Part shown: piece by piece, positions 4,504-50,216 of the stretch
Layout: every line of letters begins with the position of its first letter
Position numbering within the stretch: the first letter of the stretch is position 1
IMG/VR virus record: IMGVR_UViG_3300045988_014506
Direction: 5' to 3' (one strand)
Source: a virus
DNA: 50,496 nt
Translations under genes and position numbers: made by a program
Notes under the pieces: model-generated
What the model saw: the letters and a program-made list of their open reading frames with translations, nothing else
Database searches by the model: none
Told to the model about the DNA's origin: nothing

Positions 4504-5442
4504 TTAAAAAATTTTTTTAAGTTTTAAGAAATCTTCTTGGAGTTCATTTATATCCCTACCATCTTGGTAATCTAATTCTTTAATAATCTTACCTTTTACA
4601 TAGTACCTAAATCTCTCGGTTGCCTTCCTACCAGCATCATCTGGGTCAAAAGCAAGTATATAAGTTCTAACAGGTAATTTGCTCAATATATCATACTGAA
4701 ACTGATTTCCAGTACCAATCATTGCCATACCCGGTACATTATACTTCCAACCTGTTAAGCAGTTTAGAAAACTTTCAGTTATCATTGCTTCTTTGTACTT
4801 ACCTGAAGTAAACATATTAGCACAGTATATAGGCTTGCTCTGTTCTTTAGGTAATCCAAAAAACTTAGTCTTAACTGACCTGGTTGCTACAAATACTACT
4901 CTTCCGTCTAAATCTTTAATTGGGAAAGTTAAGCAGTCCCTCTTTGAGTCATAACCAATATCAAACCTTTCTATAATATCATCAGTTAATCCTCTTTCAT
5001 ACATATAAGGATGGATGTATCTATAACTATCTAATTCTTCTTCGGTTATATCATTAATTTCTTGGGTTTCTCTGCGGTTTCTAATATCTCCTGTAAATAT
5101 CATAGGTCTCGTCTCTATCTCAAGAGAATTAAATCGCTTTACTAACCATCTTGTTCCAAACTTTCCATTATCTATATAACCAAAAAGTTCGCTAATCATC
5201 TCAGATATTGTGCCACTCCAACCACAAGTAAAGCAATGGCACTTTCCATCATCTATATTTATGCCAAAAGAAGGTTTACGTTCTTGACCATTCTTATGGA
5301 ATGGACAGTTTGTCTGAATATTTCTACCATTAGGTCTAAACATCATAAATCTATCCACTCCTTTGATATATAGTTCTGACTTTAAAGTATTTAGAACATC
5401 TTGCATATCTGCTTGGATTATAGTTTCTTCTAACTTAATCAT
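4504..5442 (-). CDS. dnaG: DNA primase (CHC2 zinc finger + TOPRIM)
   Basis: 312 aa. Zinc finger CPFHKNGQERKPSF...CHCFTCG. TOPRIM-like ITESFLN and AFDPDDAGRKA. Confidence 0.85.
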   Translation of the reverse strand: MIKLEETIIQADMQDVLNTLKSELYIKGVDRFMMFRPNGRNIQTNCPFHKNGQERKPSFGINIDDGKCHCFTCGWSGTISEMISELFGYIDNGKFGTRWLVKRFNSLEIETRPMIFTGDIRNRRETQEINDITEEELDSYRYIHPYMYERGLTDDIIERFDIGYDSKRDCLTFPIKDLDGRVVFVATRSVKTKFFGLPKEQSKPIYCANMFTSGKYKEAMITESFLNCLTGWKYNVPGMAMIGTGNQFQYDILSKLPVRTYILAFDPDDAGRKATERFRYYVKGKIIKELDYQDGRDINELQEDFLKLKKIF

Positions 5443-7910: not shown

Positions 7911-8699
7911 TTAGAAAATAAACCTAGGGTTATTCATCATACTATCCACCCTACTGTTATGGTCCTCTATTGATTCTTTATCTGTGTTATCTAATCTATA
8001 TGACTGCTTACTTGACTTCTGAGTATTTATAAATATTCCTTTATAACCATTTCTAATGGAATTATTTATTGCTTCTAACTGGGAATGCTCATCTACACCA
8101 GCTAAAGTATCTAATGTTAAAGTCAACTGGTTTTCAGCAGGATAGTCTCCTTTATCAATTCTATCCGAATAAAAATCTAAAATCTTATCCATAACTTTTT
8201 CTGAGAATTCATATTCAGCAAACTTACCTAAAACTTTGTCTAGATATCTGTCTTTCTTGGTTTTAGATTTCTTTTCGTTTTTTAAATCTTTATTTACTTT
8301 ATCTTTATTTACTTTATCTTTATTTAATTGTTGTGGTTTTTCTATATGTTGATTTTCTACATATAGATTTTCTGTACCTTGTTTTTTACCATCTTGTTTT
8401 TTAGGACTCTCAAAGAAGTTATACTCATATTCAAATCTACCTGAATCTGTTTGACTCGGAAGTTTCTTAATAACTACAAGATATCCATTGTTCTTTAATT
8501 CTTCAAGGGCAGAATTAATTGCTGTCCTATTCTCTTTACAGATTGAAACTAAACCATTCACTGTATAGTCCCAGTTATCAGGTAAAGATAATACTAAACT
8601 TAAAAGCCCTTTAGCTTTAAGAGTGAGATTATCATCTCGCAAGTGATAATTACTCATAACTGTATAATTACTATTCTTTTCAACTCTACATATTGACAT
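7911..8699 (-). CDS. putative replication initiator / replisome organizer (N-terminal wHTH, DnaD-like C-terminus)
   Basis: The N-terminal pattern NYTVMSNYHLRDDNLTLKAKGLLSLVLSLPDNWDYTVNGL is typical of Firmicutes phage/plasmid initiator HTH domains. Start moved to the ATG at 8699, which is preceded by AAGGAGG. Lies upstream of the loader/helicase/primase genes. Confidence 0.5.
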   Translation of the reverse strand: MSICRVEKNSNYTVMSNYHLRDDNLTLKAKGLLSLVLSLPDNWDYTVNGLVSICKENRTAINSALEELKNNGYLVVIKKLPSQTDSGRFEYEYNFFESPKKQDGKKQGTENLYVENQHIEKPQQLNKDKVNKDKVNKDLKNEKKSKTKKDRYLDKVLGKFAEYEFSEKVMDKILDFYSDRIDKGDYPAENQLTLTLDTLAGVDEHSQLEAINNSIRNGYKGIFINTQKSSKQSYRLDNTDKESIEDHNSRVDSMMNNPRFIF

Positions 8700-8760
8700 A
8701 TTAATAACCTCCTTGGTAATTATAGTGCGTGCCCGCTTAATGGACACGCACTTAAAGTAA

Positions 8761-9942: not shown

Positions 9943-10256
9943 TACTTTGCCTCCTTTCTTTCTAATACTTTTGTACCATACTGCCCCCATTGGTAATAAG
10001 CATTAAACTCTGCCATAATTCCTCTATACTTGCTTTGTAAGTCTTCTTTGAACTGTTCAAGGCTAGCAATATCGGACTGCTTAAATAGCATTGTCTTCCT
10101 ACTATCTCGGACATATGATGGTAACTTTAATTCAATAGGTTTCTCATAATCCGGATTCTCATACCATCTATACCACCTTTTTATGGTATTGGTTGATATA
10201 TCCAATATCTGAGCAACTCTTGAAATACTAAATAATTTTTCTTCTCTATTTCCCAC
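9942..10256 (-). CDS. putative MerR/excisionase-type HTH DNA-binding protein
   Basis: 104 aa. FSISRVAQILDISTNTIKRWYRW. GTG start with GGAGGTGA 4 nt upstream. First gene after a promoter variant. Confidence 0.55.
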   Translation of the reverse strand: MGNREEKLFSISRVAQILDISTNTIKRWYRWYENPDYEKPIELKLPSYVRDSRKTMLFKQSDIASLEQFKEDLQSKYRGIMAEFNAYYQWGQYGTKVLERKEAK

Positions 10257-10322
10257 TTACTCACCTCCTTCTTATTACTCTAATTATTGTAACACATAAG
10301 AAATAAATTGTAAAGTATAGAT
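10257..10322 (-). promoter_or_regulatory. Promoter cassette variant, copy 2
   Basis: Minus strand: TTTACA (10309-10314), 17 nt, TACAAT (10286-10291) with TGT extension. It shares the tatgtgTTACAAT core with the early cassette, but the -35 and spacer differ. Confidence 0.6.
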
Positions 10323-12047
10323 TTAAGAAAGTAATTGGTAAATCATATCCATACCTAGTTTACCTCCTTTACCATCAACTAAAGCGTCTGAAACTAATCC
10401 TTTCTTATATACTATATCTTCTATTCTTTCATCAATGGTATTCTTTGTTACTAAAGTTATGATATTTACAGTTCCCTGAGTTCCAATTCTGTGTGCCCTA
10501 TCTTCTGCTTGGTCTTTTAATGCTCTATTCCAAGGACTATCTAAGAATATAACTGTCTGGGCAGCTGTAAGGGTTAAGCCTGTTCCCATTGCTCCTATTG
10601 TTCCAATAATAACTTTACATCTATCATCATTTTGAAACCTTGAAACTTCTTCCATTCTTTCATTAGGTGAAGTGTCTCCAGTTATATAAGCAGGATTATA
10701 TTTAGATAATCTTTCTTTTGCTATGCTAGTAATATTACTCCAGTTGCTAAATATAATACATTTCTTTCCTGCTTGTGCTAATTCTTCAACTAACTCTTCC
10801 ATTCTATCAAGTTTAGCAGACTCTTTAACTTTATCACTAAGTATACCTGTATACCCAGTAGCTTGTCTTAGTCTTATAAGCATAGATAATGGATTATTAC
10901 TAAACTTAATCTTATTTATATCACTCATAACACCATTATATACCTCATTGTAGATTACTTTCTGTTTAGTTCCCATTTCTACATATTCTACTTGGTGCAT
11001 TTTTTCTGGTAAATCTAAAACTTCCATTTTTAGTCGTCTAAGCATTACTAAATCCATAAGTTCCCTTATCTCATCTAAGTTTTTAAATCCAACAACTTCG
11101 GAACCACCCCAACCACCAAGTGTACAGTAGTGTTGCTTAAATTGATAAAAACTATGCTGCTCATATCCTAACCAATGTAGTGGGAAGTATAAGTCAAGTG
11201 GATTATTCATTAGAGGCGTACCACTCATAGCCACCATATATTCTGCACTGATTAAACTCATTGCTCGACCTTGTAAAGATGTTGGATTCTTAGCTTTGTG
11301 GCATTCATCAAAAGCAATCATACTTATCTCACCACTCTTACATAATTCAGCAATCTTCTCTGCTATTGGGAATGAATACTTTGTCTTACTAACTTTCTTT
11401 GCACCAGCCCTTAAAGTTTCTATATTAGTTATTATAAATTTACAGTCAGGAAGGTTATTTAAGTCTGCGAGTTTATCATTGCTGCTTCCCTCATAAGATT
11501 TACCATTCTTTCTAAATCTTGTACCTAATACCCATCCTTTCTCATTACTGTGTATTTCTATTTCTGACTGCCAGTTATATTTAAGTGAGTTAACACCACA
11601 AACTATTAGTACTTTATTTATGCTATGAATATGACTTAAGCATCCTGCTAAATCTATAATCTGCTTGGTCTTTCCAAGACCTTGGTCATCACAAAGTAAA
11701 AACTTGTTATTAGCTAATCCAAACTTTACACCATCTAACTGGTGAGCAAAAGGTTTGGTCTTAAACTTATAAGTTTCAGGAATCTGTATATCATCAAGTT
11801 TTTTAGTTTCCATATCTTGATATATTCCAGTTATCTCAATTTCTTCATTCTCAAACTTATTACATAAACCAATTATATTAGAAACAGGCATTTCCCAAGT
11901 ATGATTTTCTGGGTTATAAACTCTAGTTCCCATATTCTTGATATACTGAACTATTGTACCATTATAGTCAAAACTAACAAAAGCTGAATATTTGACTAAT
12001 ATATTTCCTGATAATTTTTCTGGTTTATCAATTCTTATCTTAATCAT
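10323..12047 (-). CDS. SNF2-family (DEAD-like) helicase/translocase
   Basis: 574 aa. Motif I DDQGLGKT, motif II FDECHKAKN, motif VI QAEDRAHRIGT. Confidence 0.85.
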   Translation of the reverse strand: MIKIRIDKPEKLSGNILVKYSAFVSFDYNGTIVQYIKNMGTRVYNPENHTWEMPVSNIIGLCNKFENEEIEITGIYQDMETKKLDDIQIPETYKFKTKPFAHQLDGVKFGLANNKFLLCDDQGLGKTKQIIDLAGCLSHIHSINKVLIVCGVNSLKYNWQSEIEIHSNEKGWVLGTRFRKNGKSYEGSSNDKLADLNNLPDCKFIITNIETLRAGAKKVSKTKYSFPIAEKIAELCKSGEISMIAFDECHKAKNPTSLQGRAMSLISAEYMVAMSGTPLMNNPLDLYFPLHWLGYEQHSFYQFKQHYCTLGGWGGSEVVGFKNLDEIRELMDLVMLRRLKMEVLDLPEKMHQVEYVEMGTKQKVIYNEVYNGVMSDINKIKFSNNPLSMLIRLRQATGYTGILSDKVKESAKLDRMEELVEELAQAGKKCIIFSNWSNITSIAKERLSKYNPAYITGDTSPNERMEEVSRFQNDDRCKVIIGTIGAMGTGLTLTAAQTVIFLDSPWNRALKDQAEDRAHRIGTQGTVNIITLVTKNTIDERIEDIVYKKGLVSDALVDGKGGKLGMDMIYQLLS

Positions 12048-38334: not shown

Positions 38335-39279
38335 TTACTGCAGACAACTAACAACTAAGTAGTCTAAAGCCACGTCTTCGTCAATCAAACCTTTCTTTAT
38401 ACCACTTTCAACTTCTTGGCATATAATCATATTTCTGACTAGTTCTTTATTACTATAACCACCTATATTTTTCTTAACTTGCTGTATTTGCCATCCAGTT
38501 AAACCTGTTCTAATACCTGGATTAGATTTGTCTTTTCCGAGTCCTTGGTAAGCTAGCATATTTCTAAAACCATTATATAAGATACTTGCTATTACCATTG
38601 AAGGTTCATTCTTAAGTTTTGCTTCTTGTAATACTTTACCTGCTTTTTCTAAGTCGCCATAAAGTACGGCATCTGTAAGTTCAAAAGTTATATCTCCTAT
38701 ATCTGCATAGATAGCATCTTGGTTTATTAGCATAGCAAAAGCATCAACGGCCTTAAGTTTTGTGGCATTCATATAATGAGTTATCTTATCACACTCTAAT
38801 AGTATCCTGCCATAATCATTACCACACATATTGCATAGTTTCTCCGCATTATTCTCGGGTAGCTCTGGGATTATATTAAGTATATAGTTAATTAATACAC
38901 TGGTATCTAATTTATTGAACTCTACACAGATTTCTTTATTTCTTGTATAGAATTTTCTAGTTTTATTAATATTAGCATACCGAAGTATAAGTATATGCTT
39001 ACTGGAATTAACTATATCTTTCACACTTTCCCATTTATCTTCTTTATTTGTATATTCAGAATCTTCAGTAACCACATAAGCTTTAACTGACTTGTCCAAA
39101 GATTTCTTATCAATACGACTTAGTACAGAAGATACATTATCACAGTGCACTATCTTATATCCAATATCTGCAATCTTACTAAGGTATATATCTAATATCT
39201 TTTGCTCTTCTCCAAACCATATAGAATACTTAGGCGGATTACTATTAGATATTGATTGCATAAGTTTTACTAATTCCAT
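38335..39279 (-). CDS. Clamp loader delta-subunit-like protein (putative)
   Basis: 314 aa. The N-terminus PKYSIWFGEEQKILDIY resembles HolA (YLLYGEE.fL). Lies in an operon with the DnaX-like and delta-prime-like genes. Confidence 0.5.
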   Translation of the reverse strand: MELVKLMQSISNSNPPKYSIWFGEEQKILDIYLSKIADIGYKIVHCDNVSSVLSRIDKKSLDKSVKAYVVTEDSEYTNKEDKWESVKDIVNSSKHILILRYANINKTRKFYTRNKEICVEFNKLDTSVLINYILNIIPELPENNAEKLCNMCGNDYGRILLECDKITHYMNATKLKAVDAFAMLINQDAIYADIGDITFELTDAVLYGDLEKAGKVLQEAKLKNEPSMVIASILYNGFRNMLAYQGLGKDKSNPGIRTGLTGWQIQQVKKNIGGYSNKELVRNMIICQEVESGIKKGLIDEDVALDYLVVSCLQ

Positions 39280-39635
39280 TAGAATAGCCTCCTTTTAGTC
39301 ACTTTACTAGGTTTTTTAGTTTCTTTTTTCTTTCCAATTCCTGTAATATGCTGAGCAATATTCTTTAGATATGCTTTATCTTTATCATTAAGTCTACTAT
39401 ATAAGTCAAACCCAGTTGTTCCATCAAAATCATACATAACATACCCATACTGAGTATTACTAATATCTGGATAATCTTTCTGCATATCAACAAGTTGTCT
39501 ACTTAATTCATCATACTCTCTATCTGTCATCTTAGAAGTGTTCAGCTCATAGTATATTATAGAATTTATTATTACTTTTCTTTGTAAAAAATCTATCTTA
39601 TCTTTATCAGTCCATCTTCTTGGAAATTTCTGCAC
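39279..39635 (-). CDS. small protein with NAD-ligase Ia-domain-like motif and basic ..RRLF C-terminus
   Basis: 118 aa. IIYYELNTSKMTDREYDELSRQLVDMQKDYP parallels the LigA N-terminal YY..D.P.I.D.EYD.L..EL..LE...P. Ends PSKVTKRRLF. GTG start follows GGAGG. Confidence 0.45.
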   Translation of the reverse strand: MQKFPRRWTDKDKIDFLQRKVIINSIIYYELNTSKMTDREYDELSRQLVDMQKDYPDISNTQYGYVMYDFDGTTGFDLYSRLNDKDKAYLKNIAQHITGIGKKKETKKPSKVTKRRLF

Positions 39636-40419
39636 TCTTAAATACCTCCAGAATCTTTATAAGCATACATTCTATACTAGCTTTCTTATTTATACTTTTA
39701 CTTGTGAGTTCTCTTTTACACTTCTCAATATGAGTAAGACACTCTAAGTATATATATAAACTACTTATATTACTTTCTATAAGATTTTCAAATACAGATA
39801 GAAACAAACTACAATCTAACTTATCAGTTTCTGCTTCTTTGGACTTTAGTTTAGTACAAGCTTTTAGTATCTTTGTTCCGGACTTACTAACTAATCCATC
39901 TATAACTTCATTTACCGTGGTCTCTGCCGTCAGAATCTGCATTCTATCTAAGTTTTTACATTTACCTGGTGTATTACAATACTTAATAACCAAGTCGTCA
40001 GATGTAAAGGTTTTCAACTGTTCTTTAGTATATGGTTGCATCTTAATAAGCGTACCTCTACTCTTTATGGTATCAAGTGTACCATCAATACTTTTAAGAG
40101 TCATAATAAAATATGCTTTATTTGGAGGTTCTTCAACAACCTTAAGTAAAGAATTCTTAGCATTTAAAGACATATCATCTGCATTTCTGAATATATAGAC
40201 AGTAGTTGACTGCACATTATACGCATTTTCTATAGTTTTTCTAACATCATCAATACTATTTCCTACAATAACTCCGGTAGCATTTAGAATCTTGATTATA
40301 CTTTTTGCTAATGTTAGTCTACCGCTGCCTTCTTCTCCTTCAATTAATATAAATCTAGGTACTGATTTTTTTAGTCTCCAGTTAACTAGCATATTAGTAT
40401 TCTTTTCTTGTCCTACCAT
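39607..40419 (-). CDS. Clamp loader delta-prime-like AAA+ protein (putative)
   Basis: 270 aa. Degenerate P-loop GEEGSGRLTLA, and LLKVVEEPP (the sensor-region pattern shared by the DnaX/HolB family). Confidence 0.55.
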   Translation of the reverse strand: MVGQEKNTNMLVNWRLKKSVPRFILIEGEEGSGRLTLAKSIIKILNATGVIVGNSIDDVRKTIENAYNVQSTTVYIFRNADDMSLNAKNSLLKVVEEPPNKAYFIMTLKSIDGTLDTIKSRGTLIKMQPYTKEQLKTFTSDDLVIKYCNTPGKCKNLDRMQILTAETTVNEVIDGLVSKSGTKILKACTKLKSKEAETDKLDCSLFLSVFENLIESNISSLYIYLECLTHIEKCKRELTSKSINKKASIECMLIKILEVFKSAEISKKMD

Positions 40420-40425
40420 ATGCTA

Positions 40426-41448
40426 CTACACTCCTTCCTTGCAATATAACACTAATCCCATCTGCACCAAAGTTTTTGGGTCAGCATCATACTTTATCTG
40501 ATTATTTATATCCATTATAGTACGCATTACTGAGAATGTACTATCACTATCTAATGATTTTAATTCTTCTTCCATCTCATTGGTTGCGGGTATTGTTAGA
40601 TAATCCATATTCTTAAATATAGCATATTTCTGGCAATCTAAAATGAACTTAGAAAATTCTTTCATAAACTGCTTTATATCTTTGCCATCAGCAAACACAT
40701 TATCTATAATCTCAATACAAGTTAAATCTCTGCTACATAATCCTTTTAATAACTTAAAGAATGTGCTATAATCTTCACTTCCCACAACTTTTAGTACATT
40801 ATCTAAGGTCAGATGATTAGACAAAGATAAACACTTATCCATCATAGTTATAGCATCACGCATTCCGCCATTGGCAATCTTAGCTATATAAGATACGGCT
40901 TCTGGATGAACTTCACCACCTACTTCTAACTCATTATGTAGTATAGTATGTAACCTATCTTCAATACCAGAATTACTAATCTTATTAAACTGATATCTTT
41001 GTACTCTGCTCATAATAGTGGCAGGAATCTTCTGTGGGTCGGTCGTACACAAGATAAATATACTATACTTTGGTGGTTCTTCTAACAACTTTAGCATTGC
41101 TTGCCAGGCTCCACTACTAAGCGAGTGACACTCATCTATAATATATATCTTATACTCAGCATCCAAGGCTTTCTTCTTGCTATCATCAATAATATGCCTA
41201 ATATTATCCACACCACTATTAGAAGCTGCATCCACTTCTATCGGGTTTCCTTTATTCTGGTTTATCATATCAGCAAATATTCTAGCAGATGTTGTCTTAC
41301 CTGTTCCTGCTGGACCTGTAAATAAATAAGCGTGCTGGAATGTCTTAGTCTTAATCTGCTCTTCTAATATATCTTTTATTGCTGACTGCTCAGTCAAGTC
41401 ATCAAATGTTCTAGGTCTGTACTTAACTGCTAAACTTGTTCTTGCCAT
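40426..41448 (-). CDS. dnaX: Clamp loader ATPase (DNA polymerase III gamma/tau, DnaX-like)
   Basis: 340 aa. KYRPRTFDDL, GPAGTGKTT, IIDECHSLS, LLKLLEEPP, SRVQRYQF (SRC motif). Confidence 0.85.
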   Translation of the reverse strand: MARTSLAVKYRPRTFDDLTEQSAIKDILEEQIKTKTFQHAYLFTGPAGTGKTTSARIFADMINQNKGNPIEVDAASNSGVDNIRHIIDDSKKKALDAEYKIYIIDECHSLSSGAWQAMLKLLEEPPKYSIFILCTTDPQKIPATIMSRVQRYQFNKISNSGIEDRLHTILHNELEVGGEVHPEAVSYIAKIANGGMRDAITMMDKCLSLSNHLTLDNVLKVVGSEDYSTFFKLLKGLCSRDLTCIEIIDNVFADGKDIKQFMKEFSKFILDCQKYAIFKNMDYLTIPATNEMEEELKSLDSDSTFSVMRTIMDINNQIKYDADPKTLVQMGLVLYCKEGV

Positions 41449-41450
41449 AA

Positions 41451-41825
41451 CTAAATATCTCCCTTCTGTCTATTGTTTGCTTTATGAATATCAAAACCTT
41501 CTGGGTATCGTGCTTTTAACTTATCTATATTCATTTCCATAATAGTATCCAAGTCATAACCGCAAGCGTGGCACATTAAAGCTAAATACCAAAGTATATC
41601 TCCCATTTCTTTCTTAAAATGTGCTTCATCCATGGGTGTTCCGTGATAGATAAATTTCTTTACCATATCATTAAGTTCACCTACTTCACCAGAAAGACCT
41701 AATGAAGCATTTAAAACTTCACTTATGTCTACAAGCATATTACTATCAATCTTGCTTTGTAGTCTTTCCTTACATCTTCCATCATTAGTTCTCATTGCTA
41801 ATTCTACATATTCCTTGCCAGTCAT
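41451..41825 (-). CDS. mazG: MazG-like nucleoside triphosphate pyrophosphohydrolase
   Basis: 124 aa. LGLSGEVGELND and EMGDILWYL motifs. Confidence 0.8.
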   Translation of the reverse strand: MTGKEYVELAMRTNDGRCKERLQSKIDSNMLVDISEVLNASLGLSGEVGELNDMVKKFIYHGTPMDEAHFKKEMGDILWYLALMCHACGYDLDTIMEMNIDKLKARYPEGFDIHKANNRQKGDI

Positions 41826-42034
41826 TATTTATTCCTCCTTCTATTCTTTAAACACTGGTCTATTGTGAACTGTCTAGCTGAGTCAGACAATTCTCTACTT
41901 AATTTAACTTGATAATTAAAATCTGATATATCTTTCTTATACTTCTGATATTCAGTACAAGTACTGTGACAACCCACAAATCTATCTTCGCAATCCTTAC
42001 AAGGAGCCACAGGTTTTTTCTTAATAATTTCCAT
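41825..42034 (-). CDS. small Cys-rich protein (69 aa)
   Basis: CKDCEDRFVGCHSTC. ORF track. Confidence 0.5.
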   Translation of the reverse strand: MEIIKKKPVAPCKDCEDRFVGCHSTCTEYQKYKKDISDFNYQVKLSRELSDSARQFTIDQCLKNRRRNK

Positions 42035-42368
42035 AGTATTCTTCCTGCCTATGTCTTAAGTATTCCAGAAACTGCTTCTCAGTTAGCACATAATAATTTT
42101 CTCCTTCTGGTTCAAATTGAAAAGCCAAAACACTTTCATCCATACCTTGCTCAAATGCTTGCTCAAATGCTTTATCTATCCAATCTTTCTTAACTGAAAA
42201 AGAACCTTGCTTTCTAGTAAGAGTCTTTGCTTCAATAAGTATAGGTTCCGCTATAACATCACCTCCGCCGAATTTTGTACCACCTGAATTTGGTGTTACT
42301 GCACCACCAGTTACTCGAGCAATATGCTTTTCCTGCTTATCACTATAATACCTTGTTGACTTATCCAT
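42021..42368 (-). CDS. PD-(D/E)xK-fold nuclease (putative resolvase-like)
   Basis: 115 aa. GGDV...LIEAK fits D-x(n)-E-x-K. Confidence 0.4.
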   Translation of the reverse strand: MDKSTRYYSDKQEKHIARVTGGAVTPNSGGTKFGGGDVIAEPILIEAKTLTRKQGSFSVKKDWIDKAFEQAFEQGMDESVLAFQFEPEGENYYVLTEKQFLEYLRHRQEEYYGNY

Positions 42369-42386
42369 ACTTTTTATTCTCCTTAT

Positions 42387-42620
42387 CTACCATATATATC
42401 TTTTTGCATATTCAGCAACAGACATATCTAACTCTCTAGCATTCTTATTAATACAACCAATACAGAGTAAGTCTTTACCTTTATTAGAATAACTATCATC
42501 AAGAGTAACTTTAGTTCCGCATTGCTTACATATAAATTTCTTATCCGGATTGTTATAACCGTTATGGAATAGATTTATATTATGCTTATCTATATCCAAC
42601 TTAAACTTAACATCTATCAT
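42387..42620 (-). CDS. small zinc-ribbon protein (77 aa)
   Basis: CKQCG...CIGC. Confidence 0.5.
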   Translation of the reverse strand: MIDVKFKLDIDKHNINLFHNGYNNPDKKFICKQCGTKVTLDDSYSNKGKDLLCIGCINKNARELDMSVAEYAKRYIW

Positions 42621-43154
42621 TTATATCTCCTCCCATTTCTTTATTGCTGACTTTATAACCCAACCTTTCCAAGTTACACTTCCTATCTGCTCAACTAAGA
42701 TATTCCACTTTTCTTTTGCTTCTTCTTCAGTTTCAATTCTTAATATACCAGCTTTTGCACTACATTCTGGTCCTATACCATATAACTTCGAGATTGGATT
42801 ACTAAGAGTTCTTCCACAGCACATACAGATTGAAGTTGGTTCAGCTTTACCTTGTAATTCCATCTGGTACATACCTCTAGTCTCTTTTATAACTCTGCCT
42901 TGCATAACTACAAGTGGCATAGGTTTATCATCATTCCATTTAGTATGGAAATCAAATGTAGTAGTTGCTGGCTCAGTCATATACTTCTTTACTTGAATCT
43001 TATAAGTATTACCAACAGTCATCTTATTAACTGGACATAATAATGAACTATCTTTTTCTTTGCCATCACTACTTGGAAGTACAATCTTAAATTCTTTACC
43101 AAGTTCAAATGACTGTTCTTTGAATCTATGAATCTGACTAAATACACTAATCAC
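42621..43154 (-). CDS. hypothetical protein with C-terminal CxxCGR (DUF6011-like) motif
   Basis: 177 aa. CMCCGRTLSNPISKLYGIGPEC. GTG start overlaps the upstream TGA (GTGA) and follows GGAGG. Confidence 0.55.
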   Translation of the reverse strand: MISVFSQIHRFKEQSFELGKEFKIVLPSSDGKEKDSSLLCPVNKMTVGNTYKIQVKKYMTEPATTTFDFHTKWNDDKPMPLVVMQGRVIKETRGMYQMELQGKAEPTSICMCCGRTLSNPISKLYGIGPECSAKAGILRIETEEEAKEKWNILVEQIGSVTWKGWVIKSAIKKWEEI

Positions 43155-43327
43155 GGATTATACCTCCTTCCATATTTCCAAATTCTTTCAAGTTCAACAA
43201 TAACAATATCTAATAATACTATAAGTACTAAACTATAAAGTATTCTTCCAACACCCATTGGAATTGACCAACCGTCCATCATATTTAATATAACTATTAA
43301 TAATGTTGATATAATAAAATTCTTCAT
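43151..43327 (-). CDS. small membrane protein (58 aa)
   Basis: Hand-translated: MKNFIISTLLIVILNMMDGWSIPMGVGRILYSLVLIVLLDIVIVELERIWKYGRRYNP. AAGGAG lies 7 nt upstream. Confidence 0.45.
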   Translation of the reverse strand: MKNFIISTLLIVILNMMDGWSIPMGVGRILYSLVLIVLLDIVIVELERIWKYGRRYNP

Positions 43328-43342
43328 CTGTAGACTCCTTTA

Positions 43343-43648
43343 TTACTTATACTCCATACAACACTTCTGGTCATTCCAATAATGTACTTTACTAACTATA
43401 AGATTATCACGGTTGCTCACTTTTGTACTTACAAAGTAGTCATTCTTATTAGCTTTGCCAATAGTATTGAGATTTAAGTCTGTCTTAACAATAGTTCCAC
43501 TATCTGTTGTAACTACAACTTGTGTCTTTGTAAATTTTGTTATTGTTCCAAACTCACCAAATATAGTATGTCCGGAACCACACCGTGCAACAAGCACTTT
43601 CTGTCCAAGTTCTATTTCTTCAAACCTTCCACAATTAAAAATCTTCAT
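43343..43648 (-). CDS. hypothetical protein (101 aa), first gene after an early cassette
   Basis: The track ORF runs upstream through the promoter. The real start is taken as the ATG at 43648 (MKIFNCGRF), 6 nt after GGAGGTG. Confidence 0.6.
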   Translation of the reverse strand: MKIFNCGRFEEIELGQKVLVARCGSGHTIFGEFGTITKFTKTQVVVTTDSGTIVKTDLNLNTIGKANKNDYFVSTKVSNRDNLIVSKVHYWNDQKCCMEYK

Positions 43649-43736
43649 AATATGCACCTCCATATATTTAATATTTATTACTATTTCATTGTAACACATA
43701 AATCTGGAAAGTGCAATAGGTTTTTTAAAATTTATT
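43649..43736 (-). promoter_or_regulatory. Early promoter cassette, copy 5
   Basis: Minus strand: TTGCAC (43711-43716), 17 nt, TACAAT (43688-43693) with TGT extension. Leader ATGGAGGTGCATATTATG. Confidence 0.75.
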
Positions 43737-43769
43737 AAAAAAAAATAAAGCAGGATAATCTCCTGCTTT
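43737..43769 (-). terminator. Rho-independent terminator
   Basis: Stem AAAGCAGGA (43747-43755) / TCCTGCTTT (43761-43769) with a 5-nt loop. Followed on the minus strand by ATTTTTTTTT. Lies directly after the recA-like stop. Confidence 0.8.
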
Positions 43770-43772
43770 ATA

Positions 43773-44804
43773 TTACTGTAAATCTTCAATCCCTGATGCT
43801 ATATAATCTGCAATATCTGGATTTTCTTTAATATATTCCAAGAATTTAGGTTTACCTTGTAACTTAATAAGTTCCCCATCTGGGTCTTGCAATACCTCAC
43901 TTGTTTCTGTGTCAAGCAAACTATACCAAGCTCCACTCTGAACTATCAATCCTACCTTTATACCTACATCAAACATATCTGAGATATAGTCTATTCCAGT
44001 AAGATATCTAAGTGTGTAGAATCCTACTTTTCTATCAGGTGGACAAACTTTAGATTTATCAAGTGAGACATTAACTATATTTCCTGCTGGATTCTCACAA
44101 GCTCTGGAAAGTGCATTGCCATTATTATCTATAAAATTGCCTTTCCTAAATGATAATCTAGTAGTACAGCTATGTCTCCAAGCTCTTCCTCCTGTGGTAG
44201 TTGTGCCACCATACATAGAATTCATATCATCTCTAATCTGGTTTATACCAATAAAGGCAGTGTGGGTTCTAGCAAGGATAGGTGTTATCTTCTTAGAAAA
44301 CTCTGTTAAACTCATACTGATACCACCATAAGTTCTCTCCCCTATCTCTTTCTCATTAGCTTGCATACTTACCATTGCTCCTATAGAGTCTAGTATAGCT
44401 AATGATATCTCACCACTATCTATAATCTCTATTAGAGTATTAAATACTTCTTCTGCTCCCATACTATCTGGGTCAAAGTAAAGTATATTCTCTACATCAA
44501 CACCCAACTTGGTTGCCCAAACTGGGTCAAAAGTATGTTCTATATCACAGACAAGTACTTTTTTATCTGGGAATAACTTCTGAGCTTGACCCGCTAAATC
44601 AAGTGCAGTAGTTGTCTTACCAGAACCATCCGCACCACTAAATTCTGCAATCCTTCCCAATGGTATACCACCATAAGTCATATAGTTTAATCTACAACTG
44701 GAAAAAGGTATTTTCTTGATATCTTGGAATTCTACACCTAACTGTATGTTTCCTATCTTCATTTTTCTATTAAGATTTTTTATAATACTATCTAATTCGC
44801 TCAT
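43773..44804 (-). CDS. RecA-family recombinase
   Basis: 343 aa. GRIAEFSGADGSGKTT (Walker A), AILDSIGAM (Walker B region). RecA-like length. Confidence 0.8.
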   Translation of the reverse strand: MSELDSIIKNLNRKMKIGNIQLGVEFQDIKKIPFSSCRLNYMTYGGIPLGRIAEFSGADGSGKTTTALDLAGQAQKLFPDKKVLVCDIEHTFDPVWATKLGVDVENILYFDPDSMGAEEVFNTLIEIIDSGEISLAILDSIGAMVSMQANEKEIGERTYGGISMSLTEFSKKITPILARTHTAFIGINQIRDDMNSMYGGTTTTGGRAWRHSCTTRLSFRKGNFIDNNGNALSRACENPAGNIVNVSLDKSKVCPPDRKVGFYTLRYLTGIDYISDMFDVGIKVGLIVQSGAWYSLLDTETSEVLQDPDGELIKLQGKPKFLEYIKENPDIADYIASGIEDLQ

Positions 44805-45321
44805 CTGGTTGTCCTCCCATATACCTTGATTGAGATAATTCCATCTCAGTTATACGCTTATTCATAACTTTCTTAAGAGAATTTAGCATCTCATAACCTG
44901 CTTCTACTTTTAACTTAACTTTCTTATATGCTCTACTATATATTGCCAATGTTATAGTTTCGGTTTGAGATGCTAATGTGCCTGCCATATCTTTATCAGC
45001 AACAGTTCCTTTTGCTTGCTCTCTTGCTTTATTAAATACTTCTTGTCTTATAGCTTTACAAGTATCTTCTTTTATACCTAAATCTTCTTGTGCTGAGCAC
45101 GCAAAATATAAGGAATTAGCAAGGTCTAATATTAAGTGTTCCAAAGTATCATCACTTATAATTTCTTGCGAATTTAACCGGTTTCTGATGGTATCTAACT
45201 GGTTATCTAAATCAGACAAGTATTTATTAGTCAAGTGTTCTGACACTTCTGCTACAATCTTAGAAGTATTATCTACTTTTATCATAACTTTATCTGTTTC
45301 TGATACATTCCTTCTACTCAT
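44788..45321 (-). CDS. hypothetical helical protein (177 aa)
   Basis: ORF track. SD AAGGAG. Lies next to the recombinase, so a mediator role is possible but unsupported. Confidence 0.55.
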   Translation of the reverse strand: MSRRNVSETDKVMIKVDNTSKIVAEVSEHLTNKYLSDLDNQLDTIRNRLNSQEIISDDTLEHLILDLANSLYFACSAQEDLGIKEDTCKAIRQEVFNKAREQAKGTVADKDMAGTLASQTETITLAIYSRAYKKVKLKVEAGYEMLNSLKKVMNKRITEMELSQSRYMGGQPDERIR

Positions 45322-45776
45322 AATCTTCTCCTTGCATATTCTGCCATAAGCATAGACTCTGCTATTCCATCATCATCTTTCTTACACCTTTCGGTTCTTT
45401 TTAAAGAAATGTTAGGAAAAAGTCTTCTAGCACAATCAATAGAAGTATTCTTATTTGAAGTCACACTAAATTCTTTTTTCCATTTTTGCGGTGGTACTAA
45501 TTGGAAAGGTATTCCAAAAGATTTTAGTACACCTTGTATAAACCCAAAGTTCTGTCCAAAGTTAAACATTGAAGTAACACCTTGACCTGGCATAGCATTA
45601 ACTTTTTCCAAGCAACACTTAACTTCTTCGCCACATAACTCCTTACATATATTAATAAGTACCTCTTCATCAAATGGTTTAGAATCTATGTATATCTTTC
45701 CATTATCAGATAACTGGTTCATAACAGTTATAGCTCCACTTTTTCCAGGGTCTATTCCCATATAATAATAACTCAT
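45318..45776 (-). CDS. RuvC-like Holliday junction resolvase
   Basis: 152 aa. N-terminal MGIDPGKSGA (catalytic Asp motif). Confidence 0.65.
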   Translation of the reverse strand: MSYYYMGIDPGKSGAITVMNQLSDNGKIYIDSKPFDEEVLINICKELCGEEVKCCLEKVNAMPGQGVTSMFNFGQNFGFIQGVLKSFGIPFQLVPPQKWKKEFSVTSNKNTSIDCARRLFPNISLKRTERCKKDDDGIAESMLMAEYARRRL

Positions 45777-45781
45777 AACTA

Positions 45782-46582
45782 CTAACCTACTTTCTTACAG
45801 ATTGTCTTATAAGCGCACCATCTACAATTCTTAGGATTATCAGTTTTAGGTGGAGCTATCATTCTTTCCACATATCCTTCACACTCCATAATCTTATCAA
45901 TACAGAGTTCCTGCTTCATCTTGCTTGTAACTTCAAATATCTCAGGACACTCCAAGTTACATACGTCTCTATTCTCATAGAGTACAAAAGCTTTATCTAA
46001 ATCAAGTAAAGTACAGTAGCAAGTAACTTGGTCAACGTGTGCTTCATCCACACACTCTTTATCTGCATACTTAAAAGATGTCTGATTTTTGAACTCGAAT
46101 AAGAAGTATTCATCTGTGCTTATTCTTCTTATTATACCATCACATCTAAAACTAACTTTTAGTGCACTATCAAACAATTTAGTTTCTGCTCCATCTTTAC
46201 CCTTAATAACTAAGGTTTTACACTTACCAAACTTTTGCTTCTTCTTAACATATTCTTCCACATCAACATATTCCCAGTCATAACCCAGTTCTCTCATATG
46301 TAGTAAAACTTCTTGGATGGCTTCGTGTCTGCGGGTACCTGTATCAGCCATACCAATAAGATTATAACTTGTACTCTGTGGGTCAGTTGGTGCAGAAGTT
46401 CTAGTAAAGTACATTCCTCTCATACAAGTAAATGAGGACGGTTTATACCAAACTGATGGTTTTCTACTTGTCTGAGCATCATACCTTTCTATAGCGGACA
46501 TAACGTCCACTAAGAATTTCTTATTAGCAGGCAAATCCTTAGTGGCATTGTCCATCATAGTAATGAGTTTTCTTCTACTCAT
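45782..46582 (-). CDS. Cas4/RecB-like PD-(D/E)xK exonuclease
   Basis: 266 aa. CDGIIRR...LFEFK nuclease core. C-terminal CRWCAYKTIC plus an N-terminal Cys fit the Cas4-type Fe-S cluster pattern. Confidence 0.6.
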   Translation of the reverse strand: MSRRKLITMMDNATKDLPANKKFLVDVMSAIERYDAQTSRKPSVWYKPSSFTCMRGMYFTRTSAPTDPQSTSYNLIGMADTGTRRHEAIQEVLLHMRELGYDWEYVDVEEYVKKKQKFGKCKTLVIKGKDGAETKLFDSALKVSFRCDGIIRRISTDEYFLFEFKNQTSFKYADKECVDEAHVDQVTCYCTLLDLDKAFVLYENRDVCNLECPEIFEVTSKMKQELCIDKIMECEGYVERMIAPPKTDNPKNCRWCAYKTICKKVG

Positions 46583-47669
46583 TCTTATTGCTTTCTAACT
46601 CTTCGTCCTCCAAAAGAGCTATTACCTGAGTGACTTTTCCACTCTCAATCTTAAGTGCGTTCTCATTACCATAATAAATCTTAACTGTCTCATCTGGGTT
46701 AGCAATTAACTGCTCTTTAAGCATTGGAATGTCTACGCAGCAAACAAATGGTTCAAAATCTTTACTTTCTACATAGTTTACTGTTTCCACAGAAGCATCT
46801 TTCTTACTATGAATATTGATACCTTTTCTACCAAAAGTAAAATAAGCACCATTCTTATCATAGGGTTCTATGAATAATGCTAATCTATCAAGTACGTCCA
46901 GTAATAGGTCTTTAGGAACTTTACAACTAGAAGTAAATGCTTCATCCAAGTATGCTTTAATCTCAGATACTGGATAATCTTCGATACCTTCCAGAACAGG
47001 TCCGGTTATAACTACATCTTTGGTTACAAAATTAAGTTCTGAATTATTAATAACCATATACTCAATTTTCTCACTACTATTGAGTGTTAGCAAAGCCATC
47101 ATCTGAGAAGATATAAGTAATGGTTCACCATACTTAAAAGCATCAAAACCATTAAAAGTTATAACACTTCCATCTGTTGTAATAACCATATCTCCGCAGT
47201 AATAACCAGTTAAACTTGGCTGTTCCAATGTCTTAGACAATGCCGACTTATTAATATTATAAGCTGCTAAAATGCTAGTAAGTAAAACTTCTCCATCAGG
47301 TTCATTTCCTACTTTAACATCAGGAAAAGATACAATACCTTCCTCATCTGCAATTAATGGTAGTTTATATGTACCATTGGCTTTAATTATTAACTTATCA
47401 TCATTAACAGACAAGTCAACTTCTTCAGAAGTAATCTTGGAAATAAGTTTGCCGAACTTATCAGCATCAACTGTGATATCCATATCATCTCCTACTACTT
47501 TATCAATGATAATACATAGCGTATTAGTCATATCTGTAGTCAGTAATCTAAGATTACCTTGTGATAACTTAATACCAACCATTGAGGTCAAAGGAATTAA
47601 GTTATTAAAACTGGCACCTTTTATTGCCTTATTTACTGCGTCTTTGAATCTTTGAGTTGAAACTTTCAT
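46575..47669 (-). CDS. dnaN: DNA polymerase III beta-type sliding clamp
   Basis: 364 aa. Beta-clamp length and N-terminal pattern (IPLTSMVGIKLSQGNLRLLTTDMTN...VDADKFGKLI). Confidence 0.7.
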   Translation of the reverse strand: MKVSTQRFKDAVNKAIKGASFNNLIPLTSMVGIKLSQGNLRLLTTDMTNTLCIIIDKVVGDDMDITVDADKFGKLISKITSEEVDLSVNDDKLIIKANGTYKLPLIADEEGIVSFPDVKVGNEPDGEVLLTSILAAYNINKSALSKTLEQPSLTGYYCGDMVITTDGSVITFNGFDAFKYGEPLLISSQMMALLTLNSSEKIEYMVINNSELNFVTKDVVITGPVLEGIEDYPVSEIKAYLDEAFTSSCKVPKDLLLDVLDRLALFIEPYDKNGAYFTFGRKGINIHSKKDASVETVNYVESKDFEPFVCCVDIPMLKEQLIANPDETVKIYYGNENALKIESGKVTQVIALLEDEELESNKNE

Positions 47670-47683
47670 CTATAAATCCTCCT

Positions 47684-48352
47684 TTATATATCTTTCTTTT
47701 TAAGAAAGTTTGTTACTGGTCTTGTAATAAATGGTACAAGTACACTTTCAATTAGCACTTCTAAAGATGTTCCTAATAATACTACACTCAACATATCTTC
47801 CCATCTCATCTCAAATGCTGATAACCCAATAGGTGCAAAAGCAATTACTAAGAATATTAAGTTATCGCAGAATTGACCTACAATAGTCGATAAAACTGCT
47901 CTTATAAAGAATAGTATAGAATTATCATTTCCTTTACTGCAAGCTCTATCTCTTAATACTACCATAATATGAGTATTAATATAATTACCAATCCAGAAAG
48001 CAATAAATGATGCTAATGCCGTTCTTACACCATTACTAAATATTAAAGCAAAAGCTGAATTCTGGTCTGGATAAGTCCCAGGTAAAGCAATAACTAATTG
48101 AGCTAATATTACTACAAATAAGTTAAGTAATCCGGCTAAAGTAAATGACCTAACATTGGCTTTCTTTCCATATATTTCTGTAGTTATATCTCCTACCATA
48201 AAAGGTATCCAAGAAACTACCGTTCCACCTCCCATCAATGCAAAAGTTGTAGACCCAATAGTTTTCATCTCAAATAAATTCTGTACTACTGTAAATACGC
48301 AGTAGATACAAGTTAACAATGCTAGATAACTAAATGTACTTTTTTTGTTCAT
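47684..48352 (-). CDS. yhhQ: YhhQ/DUF165-family queuosine-precursor (preQ0/preQ1) transporter
   Basis: 222 aa polytopic membrane protein. FPFMVGDITTEIYGKK-type motif (here IPFMVGDITTEIYGKK) and overall YhhQ-like topology. Confidence 0.75.
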   Translation of the reverse strand: MNKKSTFSYLALLTCIYCVFTVVQNLFEMKTIGSTTFALMGGGTVVSWIPFMVGDITTEIYGKKANVRSFTLAGLLNLFVVILAQLVIALPGTYPDQNSAFALIFSNGVRTALASFIAFWIGNYINTHIMVVLRDRACSKGNDNSILFFIRAVLSTIVGQFCDNLIFLVIAFAPIGLSAFEMRWEDMLSVVLLGTSLEVLIESVLVPFITRPVTNFLKKKDI

Positions 48353-48364
48353 AAAAATTTCCTC

Positions 48365-49291
48365 CTAAAATAATGTTCTTCGTGTAATTTTACTCTCATT
48401 CTTACACTTATAGTTTTTTGCCCAGTTTATTAAAAATAAAGCATTGGCTTTTATTCTTGATACATAATCTGTCTGGACTTCTTCTAAAGTTAATCCAATA
48501 CTTTCTAAATAATCAGATAACTTCTTTTGAGCTTCTGCTGGCATTTTGGCTATATTTCTATCCACATCAATCCTAACTTCGCTACATACAATCTTTCCAT
48601 AAGGTGTCCAAACATCTCCCATAACACCAGCTAAAATCCAAGTAGTTGAATCTGCACTAGTCAATGGAAATTCTTCCATTATATCTAAACTAGTCATACC
48701 AAAAGCGTGAGTCTTAACATTAGGATTAGAACTCTGCTTTATTATAGTGAAGCATTTATCTAAGAATTCTGATTTTGCTTTCTTAGACACATCTCCTCTA
48801 GGTGACAATCCAACATACTCAACTTTACTTCCATCTTCATCACGGAATTCTAACATATTTTCTAACCATTTAAAATTCTCGCCTTGATGGAATACAGGAA
48901 TAAGTTTTTCTGGGCTCTTTACTTTACTTCTCATATATAAGTAATTCTCCCAACTCATTTCTGGGGCTTCTGCCCAATCTTTTGCTGTCTTATGCTGATG
49001 GTACACACCCGGTATCTTATCTACTTGAGCAAAAACTGTAACATACTCATCTATGGAATTTATGAATTCTATATAATCATCCACATCCACTACTCTGCCT
49101 TTTGTATGAGCACTATGAGCACCTGAATCTATAAACAGTTTTTCTTCAGGTTCAGGATTTGGATGAGTTTCAATCCATTTCTTAATGGCCCCACGGTCAT
49201 TTAACTGGCTGAATAATCTTGGTACTTTTGCTTCAGTAAGTAAATCTTGTAATTCCTTGGGACCACCCCCAGCATAATATAAGTCAAGCAT
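48365..49291 (-). CDS. dpdA: DpdA-like DNA-guanine transglycosylase (TGT superfamily)
   Basis: 308 aa. LFIDSGAHS parallels the TGT catalytic-Asp motif DSGGFQ. HAFGMTS...TSADSTTW parallels the second TGT Asp region. Adjacent to yhhQ. Confidence 0.6.
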   Translation of the reverse strand: MLDLYYAGGGPKELQDLLTEAKVPRLFSQLNDRGAIKKWIETHPNPEPEEKLFIDSGAHSAHTKGRVVDVDDYIEFINSIDEYVTVFAQVDKIPGVYHQHKTAKDWAEAPEMSWENYLYMRSKVKSPEKLIPVFHQGENFKWLENMLEFRDEDGSKVEYVGLSPRGDVSKKAKSEFLDKCFTIIKQSSNPNVKTHAFGMTSLDIMEEFPLTSADSTTWILAGVMGDVWTPYGKIVCSEVRIDVDRNIAKMPAEAQKKLSDYLESIGLTLEEVQTDYVSRIKANALFLINWAKNYKCKNESKITRRTLF

Positions 49292-49307
49292 AGCTTATCC
49301 TCCTTTC

Positions 49308-50216
49308 TTAAAATAATCTTTTAGAAGCTGTACTCCTTTTATATTTAGGAACTTCAACTTCATTATAGCATATAGGGTTTAACCTGTCAACATATAATAA
49401 CTTCTTGCTTTTATTATAGTTATTATTAAAATTTCTCCAAGTTATTCTGCCCTTACTATCACGACTTAAACCATAATCTTTATACTGATTACACAAAGCA
49501 TCTAAATCTTTTTGTAGTATTAAGTCTCTTCTTTCTACATCATCACCAAATATACTAGACACATTCATATTAAGATTCTTCTTAATTCCTGTAGTTACTG
49601 TATACCAAGTATAACCTTTAAGTAACCATCTAATAAGAAAGTCAATATCTTCCCTACCTTCTCCATTGTTAGCATCAATATTCTGAAAGTAAAGCTGGGT
49701 ACCTTTATGTTTATATATATTTAATATAAAACCGCAAGCTGACCCAGAATTCAATTCCCTAGGAATAAATCTATGCTTATCTAACACTAACTTGTCTTCG
49801 TAGTTTTCTTTCTTATATGGATGATACTCAGGCTCCAATAATGATATAGCCATAACTTCATAGAAATCTTCCGGATATCTATTTATCTGGTCAAATAATC
49901 CTTCTATATCATAATAAGGATACCATATGGTATCATCATCACAGAGCATAAGAAAGTCATACTGTGTACTATAGAAATAGTCTAATAGTACATTTCTGGC
50001 TTTTCCTGCTCCTAAAGGCTGGTCATATACTATATACTTAATACCGTCTATAAAATCTGATTCTTTATAATTCTGAGCTACAACGATAAACTCATTGTCT
50101 GGATATACTTTGCGTATATGCTCTGCTTGTACCTTAATAGCATCTAACCTTTTCTTTCTTATATTACAATCATCTGGTAAGTATGATACTATACCAATCA
50201 TAACACTATTTTCCAT
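49308..50216 (-). CDS. GT-A fold (family 2-like) glycosyltransferase
   Basis: 302 aa, no TM segment. N-terminal IGIVSYLPDD, GAGKARN, DxD-type LMLCDDDT, EGREDIDF. Confidence 0.55.
   Translation of the reverse strand: MENSVMIGIVSYLPDDCNIRKKRLDAIKVQAEHIRKVYPDNEFIVVAQNYKESDFIDGIKYIVYDQPLGAGKARNVLLDYFYSTQYDFLMLCDDDTIWYPYYDIEGLFDQINRYPEDFYEVMAISLLEPEYHPYKKENYEDKLVLDKHRFIPRELNSGSACGFILNIYKHKGTQLYFQNIDANNGEGREDIDFLIRWLLKGYTWYTVTTGIKKNLNMNVSSIFGDDVERRDLILQKDLDALCNQYKDYGLSRDSKGRITWRNFNNNYNKSKKLLYVDRLNPICYNEVEVPKYKRSTASKRLF

Follow-up and report, generated by a model that had tools for sequence, protein, structure and literature searches.

Three otherwise unrelated proteins encoded in a 50,496-nucleotide stretch of viral DNA (IMG/VR record IMGVR_UViG_3300045988_014506; the whole stretch is referred to below as the window) end in nearly the same short peptide. 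They are a DpdA-like DNA (7-deazaguanine) transglycosylase, a glycosyltransferase and a solo Nlig-Ia (DNA-ligase domain Ia-like) protein. Comparison with related phages suggests, with a probability that we put at roughly 0.7, that these C-terminal [KR]-[KR]-x-L-F tails are beta-clamp-binding motifs, basic variants of Q-x-x-L-F carried on flexible extensions. Clamp binding had been proposed in a first-pass annotation of the window, and the comparison supports it in several ways: motifs on DNA polymerases, a matching pair of PLSLF endings on a DpdA and a polymerase, switching of the motif between protein termini, its absence where no clamp genes were found, and orthologs that end in Q-x-x-L-F. 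The same annotation held that this phage encodes its own beta-type clamp and clamp loader, which is borne out by the PF00712 and phrog_947 matches of the clamp, by a full-length match of the clamp family profile to Bacillus subtilis DnaN (4TR6; E=2.8e-24) in a search against the PDB, and by the Pfam matches of the loader (Table 1); a cognate beta-type clamp is therefore present in the window.

Translation of the minus strand gives ESKITRRTLF and a stop codon for DpdA at 48365-48397 (codons without the stop, 48368-48397), KRSTASKRLF and a stop codon for the glycosyltransferase at 49308-49340 (49311-49340), and PSKVTKRRLF and a stop codon for Nlig-Ia at 39279-39311 (39282-39311). In all three proteins the motif forms the last residues. 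Pairwise BLASTP among the three proteins gave nothing significant, the best match being that of the DpdA tail region with Nlig-Ia (E=0.013), so that the original observation of a near-identical ending on proteins without other similarity holds. LF endings occur in three of the 75 minus-strand open reading frames (ORFs), whereas composition-preserving shuffles predict 0.21 (P=0.0013); with the added requirement of a K or R within three residues upstream, the expectation falls to 0.07, and three cases were reached in 0 of 20,000 shuffles.

Strong conservation of the tail is seen among the homologs of each of the three proteins, one of the points on which the first-pass annotation had made its proposal depend. 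Among 120 DpdA homologs (mostly 49-56% identical, with three closer), 104 end in LF, nine in LI and three in LL, and the LF-ending ones carry K or R at position -5 in 95 and at position -4 in 92 of the 104 cases. Nlig-Ia homologs end in LF in 113 of 120 cases, usually as KKKGGLF after a K-rich linker of varying length and sequence. For the glycosyltransferase, 35 of 150 representatives (50% identity) have an LF ending, among them the majority of the closest full-length sequences, and several others carry a sub-terminal …SLFD-type motif. In the AlphaFold2 (AF2) model of DpdA, the last helix (276-292) is followed by coil (residues 293-308) in which the predicted local distance difference test score (pLDDT) drops to 51; the tail is thus predicted to lie outside the fold and to be disordered. 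An invariant terminal dipeptide, semi-conserved charges, a variable linker and predicted disorder together point to a short linear docking motif.

The tail is also widespread beyond these three proteins. Across 2180 ORFs of related loci (designated below by L and a number), LF is the commonest C-terminal dipeptide, with 105 cases against 60 for the runner-up, and at least ten unrelated families bear the tail. These include two different PF01555 N6/N4 DNA methylases, a class-I S-adenosylmethionine-dependent methyltransferase adjoining dpdA, a protein resembling 3'-phosphoadenosine-5'-phosphosulfate (PAPS) reductase, a protein that matches DUF6884 below threshold, and several others that match no family. 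In Cellulophaga phage phi38:2, which has a clamp, DpdA is short and tail-less; both neighbours of its dpdA are tailed, one a ParB-like protein ending in …ETSVNLF (of weak identity, with a sub-threshold ParB_N match and an annotation as ParB-like nuclease) and the other a CxxCxxCC protein ending in …DNQVNLF. Tails of distant orthologs can be non-basic, as in PLSLF, RIQELF and DPVLF.

Bacterial beta-clamp ligands follow the consensus QL[S/D]LF and are often C-terminal; DNA polymerase II (Pol II) ends in QLGLF, and the clamp accommodates the Leu-Phe pair in its subsite 1 (PMC3716654). Many DpdA orthologs carry a C-terminal Q-x-x-L-F, including those of phages Dp-1 (QRRLF) and Flasso (QGKLF); Dinoroseobacter phage R5C DpdA ends in QVSLF, those of Rhizobium phage RHEph05 and Aminobacter phage Erebus in EQRLF, and that of BcepGomr in QQGLFV. 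Even P0001, a near-identical variant of the window DpdA, ends in QRTLF. The tails thus resemble the bacterial clamp-binding motif (QL[S/D]LF, or the hexapeptide QLxLxL; Dalrymple et al. 2001) in being short terminal Leu-Phe peptides on flexible extensions, common to unrelated clients that include polymerases. They differ from this motif, exemplified by the C-terminal tails of E. coli Pol II and Pol IV, in that Gln is replaced by Arg or Lys and positions 2-3 are basic in the window, and in that the predicted binding would be to a phage-encoded clamp and would involve DNA-modifying enzymes together with a lone ligase domain.

The DpdA endings of a group of jumbo-phage contigs (L072, L076, L082-L088 and L090; 135-166 kb) depart from this pattern: most read …ARRIGL, which resembles the QLxLxL class, and two read …ARRIGNR. 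In these contigs the 349-351-amino-acid clamps adjoining dpdA end in …TSIGLIV, and the glycosyltransferase homologs are tail-less.

A motif of this kind is also found on the replicative polymerases of the same systems, as would be expected of a clamp-binding peptide shared by unrelated clients. Among 59 distinct full-length homologs of the family-A polymerase (PolA) from related loci, 37 have LF or LSF in the first 12 residues, compared with a background of 3.8% in other ORFs; in four more the motif follows a mis-called start, and the remainder show GLL, GLI, DMF, KVF or SLW there. PolA starts with MALSF in the clade of the window, elsewhere with MALF…, MPLF… or MSGLFNLPPR, and with MSQKGLFGAKP in Dp-1-like phages. 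An N-terminal LF-type motif with a basic linker is kept across about 59 relatives. The family-B polymerase (PolB) of Queuovirinae-like phages begins M..D..G[LFI]FW[EQD]D and continues with a K-rich linker. At locus L117 (5421-10328), DpdA ends in …FPLSLF and the DNA polymerase (phrog_1252, E=1e-135) in …VPLSLF; a beta clamp gene (PF00712 and PF02768) comes next, followed by a PF01555 DNA methylase gene. L117 is a phage-like contig binned with a Parcubacteria metagenome-assembled genome (MAG); a contig scan aimed at DpdA from bacterial Dpd islands, intended as clamp-less controls, gave mostly phage-like MAG-binned contigs, which were used as positives.

In one clade (L026, L027, L029 and L033; dpdA at about 10001-11590), a long DpdA of 522-529 amino acids has a C-terminal extension ending in …GFNS or …AGF instead of LF, and the polymerases start with MGLLNIK, MSLLNIK or MGLLSIK. 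These DpdA and polymerase termini may represent a variant motif pair.

Nlig-Ia orthologs without the C-terminal tail bear the motif at the N-terminus, where it looks like the one on the phage's own polymerase: MQKSLFG… in Dp-1-like phages, M[PA]LFDIKK… in L071, L074 and L075, MALFTVHKK… in L023 and MNLFSIAKKK… in gp60 of phage phiCTP1. The Nlig-Ia protein of L079 has the motif at both ends. Across all ORF families, N-terminal M-x(0-5)-L[FW] occurs chiefly in PolA (34 of 75) and Nlig-Ia (7 of 17). At L048 (3472-4431) and in identical genes at three related loci, a 318-amino-acid LPG_synthase_C-like (aminoacyl-transferase-like) protein encoded directly after PolA starts with MLFDYSEIK, and it may be another carrier of the N-terminal motif.

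The synteny of Nlig-Ia with the clamp-loader genes is kept in related loci. The gene order is dnaX-delta'-Nlig-delta in the clade of the window and Nlig-dnaX-delta'-delta in Dp-1-like phages, and an Nlig-Ia gene lies within or beside clamp-loader genes in L006-L009, L052, L053, L071, L074 and L075. This location suggests an accessory role at the replisome or clamp loader, rather than that of a free NAD+ sensor. Solo phage Nlig-Ia domains have been proposed to be NAD+ sensors, in a study that does not mention terminal LF motifs or clamp-loader linkage (PMC9503650). The proteins considered there belong to the same standalone PF22745 family; here the gene is part of, or adjoins, the clamp-loader cluster, and the motif occurs only in phages that encode a clamp.

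The tails go together with phage clamp genes. In most of 80 viral-contig loci with sufficient flank, the distance between dpdA and a clamp gene is 12-4500 bp, and clamp and dpdA are close to one another in eleven isolates from distant lineages (Dp-1, Flasso, NP1, VogelGryff, Edwardsiella phage ZHS, RHEph05, BcepGomr, Synechococcus phage Yong-L2-223, Erebus, R5C and phi38:2). For the PolB-type phages among these (NP1, VogelGryff, RHEph05, BcepGomr, Yong-L2-223, Erebus and R5C), the identity of the 317-324-amino-acid clamps is mainly that given by the depositors; the family profile of these Queuovirinae-like clamps matches beta clamps in the PDB with E=1.6e-4, and the Pfam match is sub-threshold. 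Counted by lineage, Nlig-Ia carries the motif in seven lineages with clamp or clamp-loader genes and lacks it in one (L089), whereas it carries the motif in none and lacks it in all four of the lineages in which no clamp genes were found (L010/L011, L012, Clostridium phage CS266P4 and Arthrobacter phage DrManhattan). The association is significant in a small and partly annotation-based sample (Fisher one-sided P=0.01). DpdA is tail-less in mycobacteriophages Bipper and Rosebush, of which Bipper alone was examined for clamp status; its annotation contains no clamp and no DNA polymerase, only a DnaQ-like exonuclease. An apparent exception to the association is phi38:2, in which a clamp accompanies a tail-less DpdA flanked by two tailed proteins.

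Several observations weigh against clamp binding or limit its reach. The window tails RRTLF, KRRLF and SKRLF keep Leu-Phe, but have R or K in place of the canonical Gln; they match the pentapeptide Q-x-x-[LM]-F in part, and many orthologs match it fully. The AF2 model of the phage clamp alone, built on a shallow multiple sequence alignment in which all rows are at least 72% identical, has a pLDDT of 47.7, too poor for a view of the pocket. The absence of clamps from the negative controls is based on annotation and our own hidden Markov models, and L010-L012 and L108 are partial genomes. In certain loci whose flanks are complete (L019, for example), no clamp-sized ORF was found downstream. Nor is the motif obligatory: the jumbo-phage glycosyltransferase homologs and L089 Nlig-Ia lack it despite the presence of a clamp. 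The expectation that the tail goes with a phage clamp gene is therefore upheld by the lineage counts and qualified by these clamp-bearing exceptions. The charge of the DpdA tail does not covary significantly with that of the clamp C-terminus (Spearman rho=-0.17, P=0.31, 40 distinct pairs), and we accordingly do not claim that basic tails and the acidic end of the clamp complement each other in charge. Finally, the K-R-R codons of Nlig-Ia (AAAAGGAGG) also serve as the Shine-Dalgarno sequence for delta, whose gene overlaps that of Nlig-Ia, so that conservation immediately before LF in this protein may in part be conservation at the nucleotide level.

With regard to this last point, AAA AGG AGG is a perfect Shine-Dalgarno sequence 8 nucleotides upstream of the delta ATG, which itself overlaps the Nlig-Ia stop codon (TAATG), and the codons for KGG in Nlig-Ia homologs (AAR GGN GGN) might in principle also spell out such a sequence. 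For dpdA and the glycosyltransferase gene, the Shine-Dalgarno sequence of the next gene falls after the stop codon. An origin of the tails as by-products of ribosome-binding sites was therefore rejected for these two proteins and kept as a partial caveat for the K-R-R or K-G-G of Nlig-Ia; the N-terminal versions of the motif cannot be explained by such an overlap.

Rather than the phage clamp, the tails might bind the host beta clamp, DnaN, and so recruit phage enzymes to host replisomes or compete with host clients. Cross-binding is plausible, as the phage clamps are true DnaN homologs and many ortholog tails match the general bacterial Q-x-x-L-F. We nevertheless consider this unlikely: the surveyed tails come from phages with a clamp gene of their own, in general no more than a few kb away from dpdA, and DpdA and Nlig-Ia of clamp-less phages have no tail even though their hosts possess DnaN. 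In addition, the window variant is basic and lacks Gln, unlike typical host motifs.

The LF termini might also dock on another hub of the replisome, such as a clamp-loader subunit, the helicase or the single-stranded DNA-binding protein (SSB). The Nlig-Ia gene lies inside the clamp-loader operon, and helicase, primase and initiator bear other terminal-aromatic tails, so that several docking sites probably exist in these replisomes. These other tails form a separate class. The first-pass annotation had regarded the endings of the primase (LKLKKIF) and of the initiator-like protein (NPRFIF) as weaker relatives of the three main tails; both endings are present, but their homologs assign them to an acidic or neutral class with terminal F. 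Primase homologs end in [ED][ED]Fxx[LC]x[EK][ILVYF]F, their final 10 residues having a median net charge of -1, and initiator homologs in SIKHF, LEVF, TTVF or SIHHF, keeping the terminal F without a basic LF. As acidic or neutral peptides ending in [ILVY]F or HF, they were not grouped with the three main tails, and their assignment to the same motif was rejected. The helicase and all 35 of its full-length homologs (loci including L003, 11847-13622, and L102, 12266-12889) likewise have an acidic tail with terminal F or Y (…DGTEVF; …KDEDEEY in the window), the phiCTP1 SSB ends in …TGADVF, and the NP1 helicase ends in DLDDDIPF, in the style of the C-terminus of bacterial SSB. In this phage group, the tails of helicase, primase and initiator resemble the SSB tail (DDDIPF) and the acidic, Phe-ending tails of T7 gp4 and gp2.5; unlike the basic LF tails, tails of this kind are neutral or acidic and terminate in [VI]F or Y. 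By their sequences, these acidic terminal peptides constitute a second, putative docking code in these replisomes. For the LF tails themselves, a hub other than the clamp appears improbable, given that the motif is carried by the replicative polymerase, which canonically partners with the clamp, that the beta-clamp cleft has the terminal Leu-Phe peptide as its defining ligand, and that the helicase- and SSB-type tails, acidic and ending in [VI]F or Y, are set apart from them.

A third possibility is that the tail is a degradation or regulatory tag, or a basic patch that binds DNA. The ClpX recognition signal of MuA, RRKKAI, is basic and then hydrophobic, a class of C-termini that the window tails superficially resemble, and basic tails can increase non-specific affinity for DNA. 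Neither role would readily account for a motif in which Leu-Phe alone is invariant while the tails of distant orthologs are non-basic, which also occurs at N-termini, including that of the essential polymerase, and which follows the presence of clamp genes; we regard both as highly improbable. Chance, or a by-product of overlapping nucleotide signals, might be invoked for a genome of about 33% GC in which Leu and Phe have AT-rich codons and the Nlig-Ia K-R-R codons double as a Shine-Dalgarno sequence, but is largely refuted by conservation and has a negligible likelihood in view of the shuffles (P about 0.001 or less), the first rank of LF among terminal dipeptides in ORFs of related loci, the position of the Shine-Dalgarno sequence after the stop codons of dpdA and the glycosyltransferase gene, and the retention of the tail across families with differing downstream genes and at N-termini.

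All genes of the window are on the minus strand, and the replication and DNA-modification module, whose modification part comprises the glycosyltransferase, DpdA and the transporter, is transcribed in the order glycosyltransferase, dpdA, transporter, clamp, Cas4-like nuclease, RuvC-like protein and UvsX-like recombinase, with the clamp-loader operon further downstream (Table 1). A megablast search of the region against isolated phages gave no match. A family-A (Pol I-like) replicative polymerase coexists in the window with a beta clamp and a DnaX/delta'/delta loader.

Table 1 Features of the window discussed in the text, with the evidence for their identity
Feature	Coordinates	Strand	Evidence and remarks
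GT2-family glycosyltransferase, 302 amino acids	49308-50216	minus	PF00535 E=2.7e-5; weak TAGT (TET-associated glycosyltransferase) match; phrog_2456; directly upstream of dpdA
DpdA-like DNA (7-deazaguanine) transglycosylase, 308 amino acids	48365-49291	minus	phrog_887 E=1.6e-54
YhhQ/Vut_1-family transporter, candidate preQ0/preQ1 importer	47684-48352	minus	PF02592 E=2.3e-32; no tail; between dpdA and clamp gene
Phage beta-type sliding clamp, 364 amino acids	46575-47669	minus	PF00712; phrog_947 E=1.2e-35; acidic C-terminus (…ALLEDEELESNKNE); proposed tail receptor
Clamp-loader operon	38335-41448	minus	PF13177, PF00004, PF22608, PF21694
DnaX-like ATPase	40426-41448	minus	clamp-loader operon
delta'	39607-40419	minus	clamp-loader operon
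Solo Nlig-Ia (DNA-ligase domain Ia-like) protein, 118 amino acids	39279-39635	minus	PF22745 E=2.6e-18; between delta' and delta genes
delta	38335-39279	minus	clamp-loader operon
Replication-initiator-like helix-turn-helix protein	7911-8747	minus	PF13730; phrog_4707; ends NPRFIF
DnaB-like helicase	5442-6707		ends …KDEDEEY
DnaG-type primase	4504-5442	minus	PF01807, PF13155; ends LKLKKIF
Family-A DNA polymerase with 3'-5' exonuclease, 754 amino acids	47-2311	minus	PF00476 E=1.9e-89; PF01612; N-terminus MALSF (codons 2297-2311)

The assignment of the transglycosylase rests on fold and homology. By tblastn it is 43% identical to gp7 of Streptococcus phage Dp-1 and also matches proteins annotated 'DpdA' in VogelGryff and Iggy. 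A sequence search against the PDB gave no meaningful match; the AF2 model (pLDDT 93.7) is matched by Foldseek to the fold of tRNA-guanine transglycosylase (TGT; E ~1e-7, TM ~0.6). The protein thus combines a TGT-like fold with homology to phage DpdA, and is predicted to carry out base insertion. No homologs of FolE, QueC, QueD, QueE or QueF were found anywhere in the window; the precursor is therefore probably salvaged via the YhhQ-type transporter or drawn from host pools. The position of the glycosyltransferase gene beside dpdA and its weak TAGT match suggest that the encoded enzyme may act on DNA, and the modified base might be glycosylated.

If the tails bind the phage clamp, a simple mechanism can be envisaged. 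The phage clamp loader would place the beta clamp on replicating phage DNA, and the family-A polymerase would dock on it through its N-terminal MALSF. The C-terminal Leu-Phe of DpdA, the glycosyltransferase and Nlig-Ia would occupy the hydrophobic cleft that the polymerase also uses, on the other protomer of the dimer or on clamps that stay on the lagging strand once the fork has passed. Base exchange (G to 7-deazaguanine), and probably glycosylation, would in this way be tethered to the newly made phage duplex, such that nascent DNA would be modified promptly and phage DNA favoured over host DNA. We infer from the comparisons above that the cleft of the phage clamp is the receptor and that tethering matters for modification.

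By analogy, the proposed arrangement is of the beta-clamp 'tool-belt' kind mechanistically, and its closest functional analogue is DNMT1 with PCNA. There, a PCNA-interacting peptide (PIP) box couples maintenance methylation to replication (reviewed in PMC9690074). In both cases a DNA-modifying enzyme on a sliding clamp would act on new DNA, and tailed DNA methylases occur in related phages; the differences are that PCNA takes the place of a beta dimer and a PIP box that of an LF tail, and that the chemistry here would include base exchange by a predicted transglycosylase. The T4 clamp gp45 is likewise a phage-encoded hub for terminal peptides (of the gp43 polymerase, gp33 and gp55), but is a PCNA-like trimer that recognizes another motif, and we know of no T4 DNA-modification enzyme that uses gp45. 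In the bacterial Dpd system, DpdA works together with the ParB-like ATPase DpdB. The transglycosylase family is the same, as is the incorporation of 7-deazaguanine into DNA, and the weakly ParB-like dpdA neighbour in phi38:2 bears an LF tail; most phage DpdA proteins, however, have no DpdB partner. The tail and the clamp may supply the DNA-engagement function in place of DpdB.

Full-text searches of the literature library used yielded no paper linking DpdA to a clamp or to a clamp-binding motif, in line with the first-pass annotation, which knew of no such description for DpdA systems, and the paper on the Dp-1 host-phage interactome mentions neither DnaN nor gp7. What is new is the set of proposed clients (DpdA, the glycosyltransferase, DNA methylases and solo Nlig-Ia) and their spread over distant phage lineages. 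A sequence rule for predicting phage clamp clients would follow, namely a terminal LF-type peptide together with a phage clamp gene, and the motif is present in tractable phages such as Dp-1, the Seuratvirus and Nonagvirus coliphages and Pseudomonas phage NP1.

Phages introduce 7-deazaguanine by base exchange once their DNA has been replicated. With a clamp-docking tail, this modification would be coupled to the replisome, which could explain how DpdA finds phage DNA and outpaces restriction without DpdB; the same idea would extend to the methyltransferases and glycosyltransferases of the same phages. More tentatively, and at somewhat less than even odds, tethering to the phage clamp may hold as a principle for the hypermodification of phage DNA in general, in which DpdA and, depending on lineage, methyltransferases, glycosyltransferases and accessory enzymes carry a docking peptide. 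If so, solo Nlig-Ia proteins would be reassigned to the replisome, as clamp- or clamp-loader-associated factors and not free NAD+ sensors, and the clamp would replace the DpdB ATPase partner of the bacterial system for DpdA. It would then serve both as a moving platform and as a mark of 'phage DNA', allowing enzymes of low sequence specificity to act on nascent phage DNA behind the fork while host DNA is spared.

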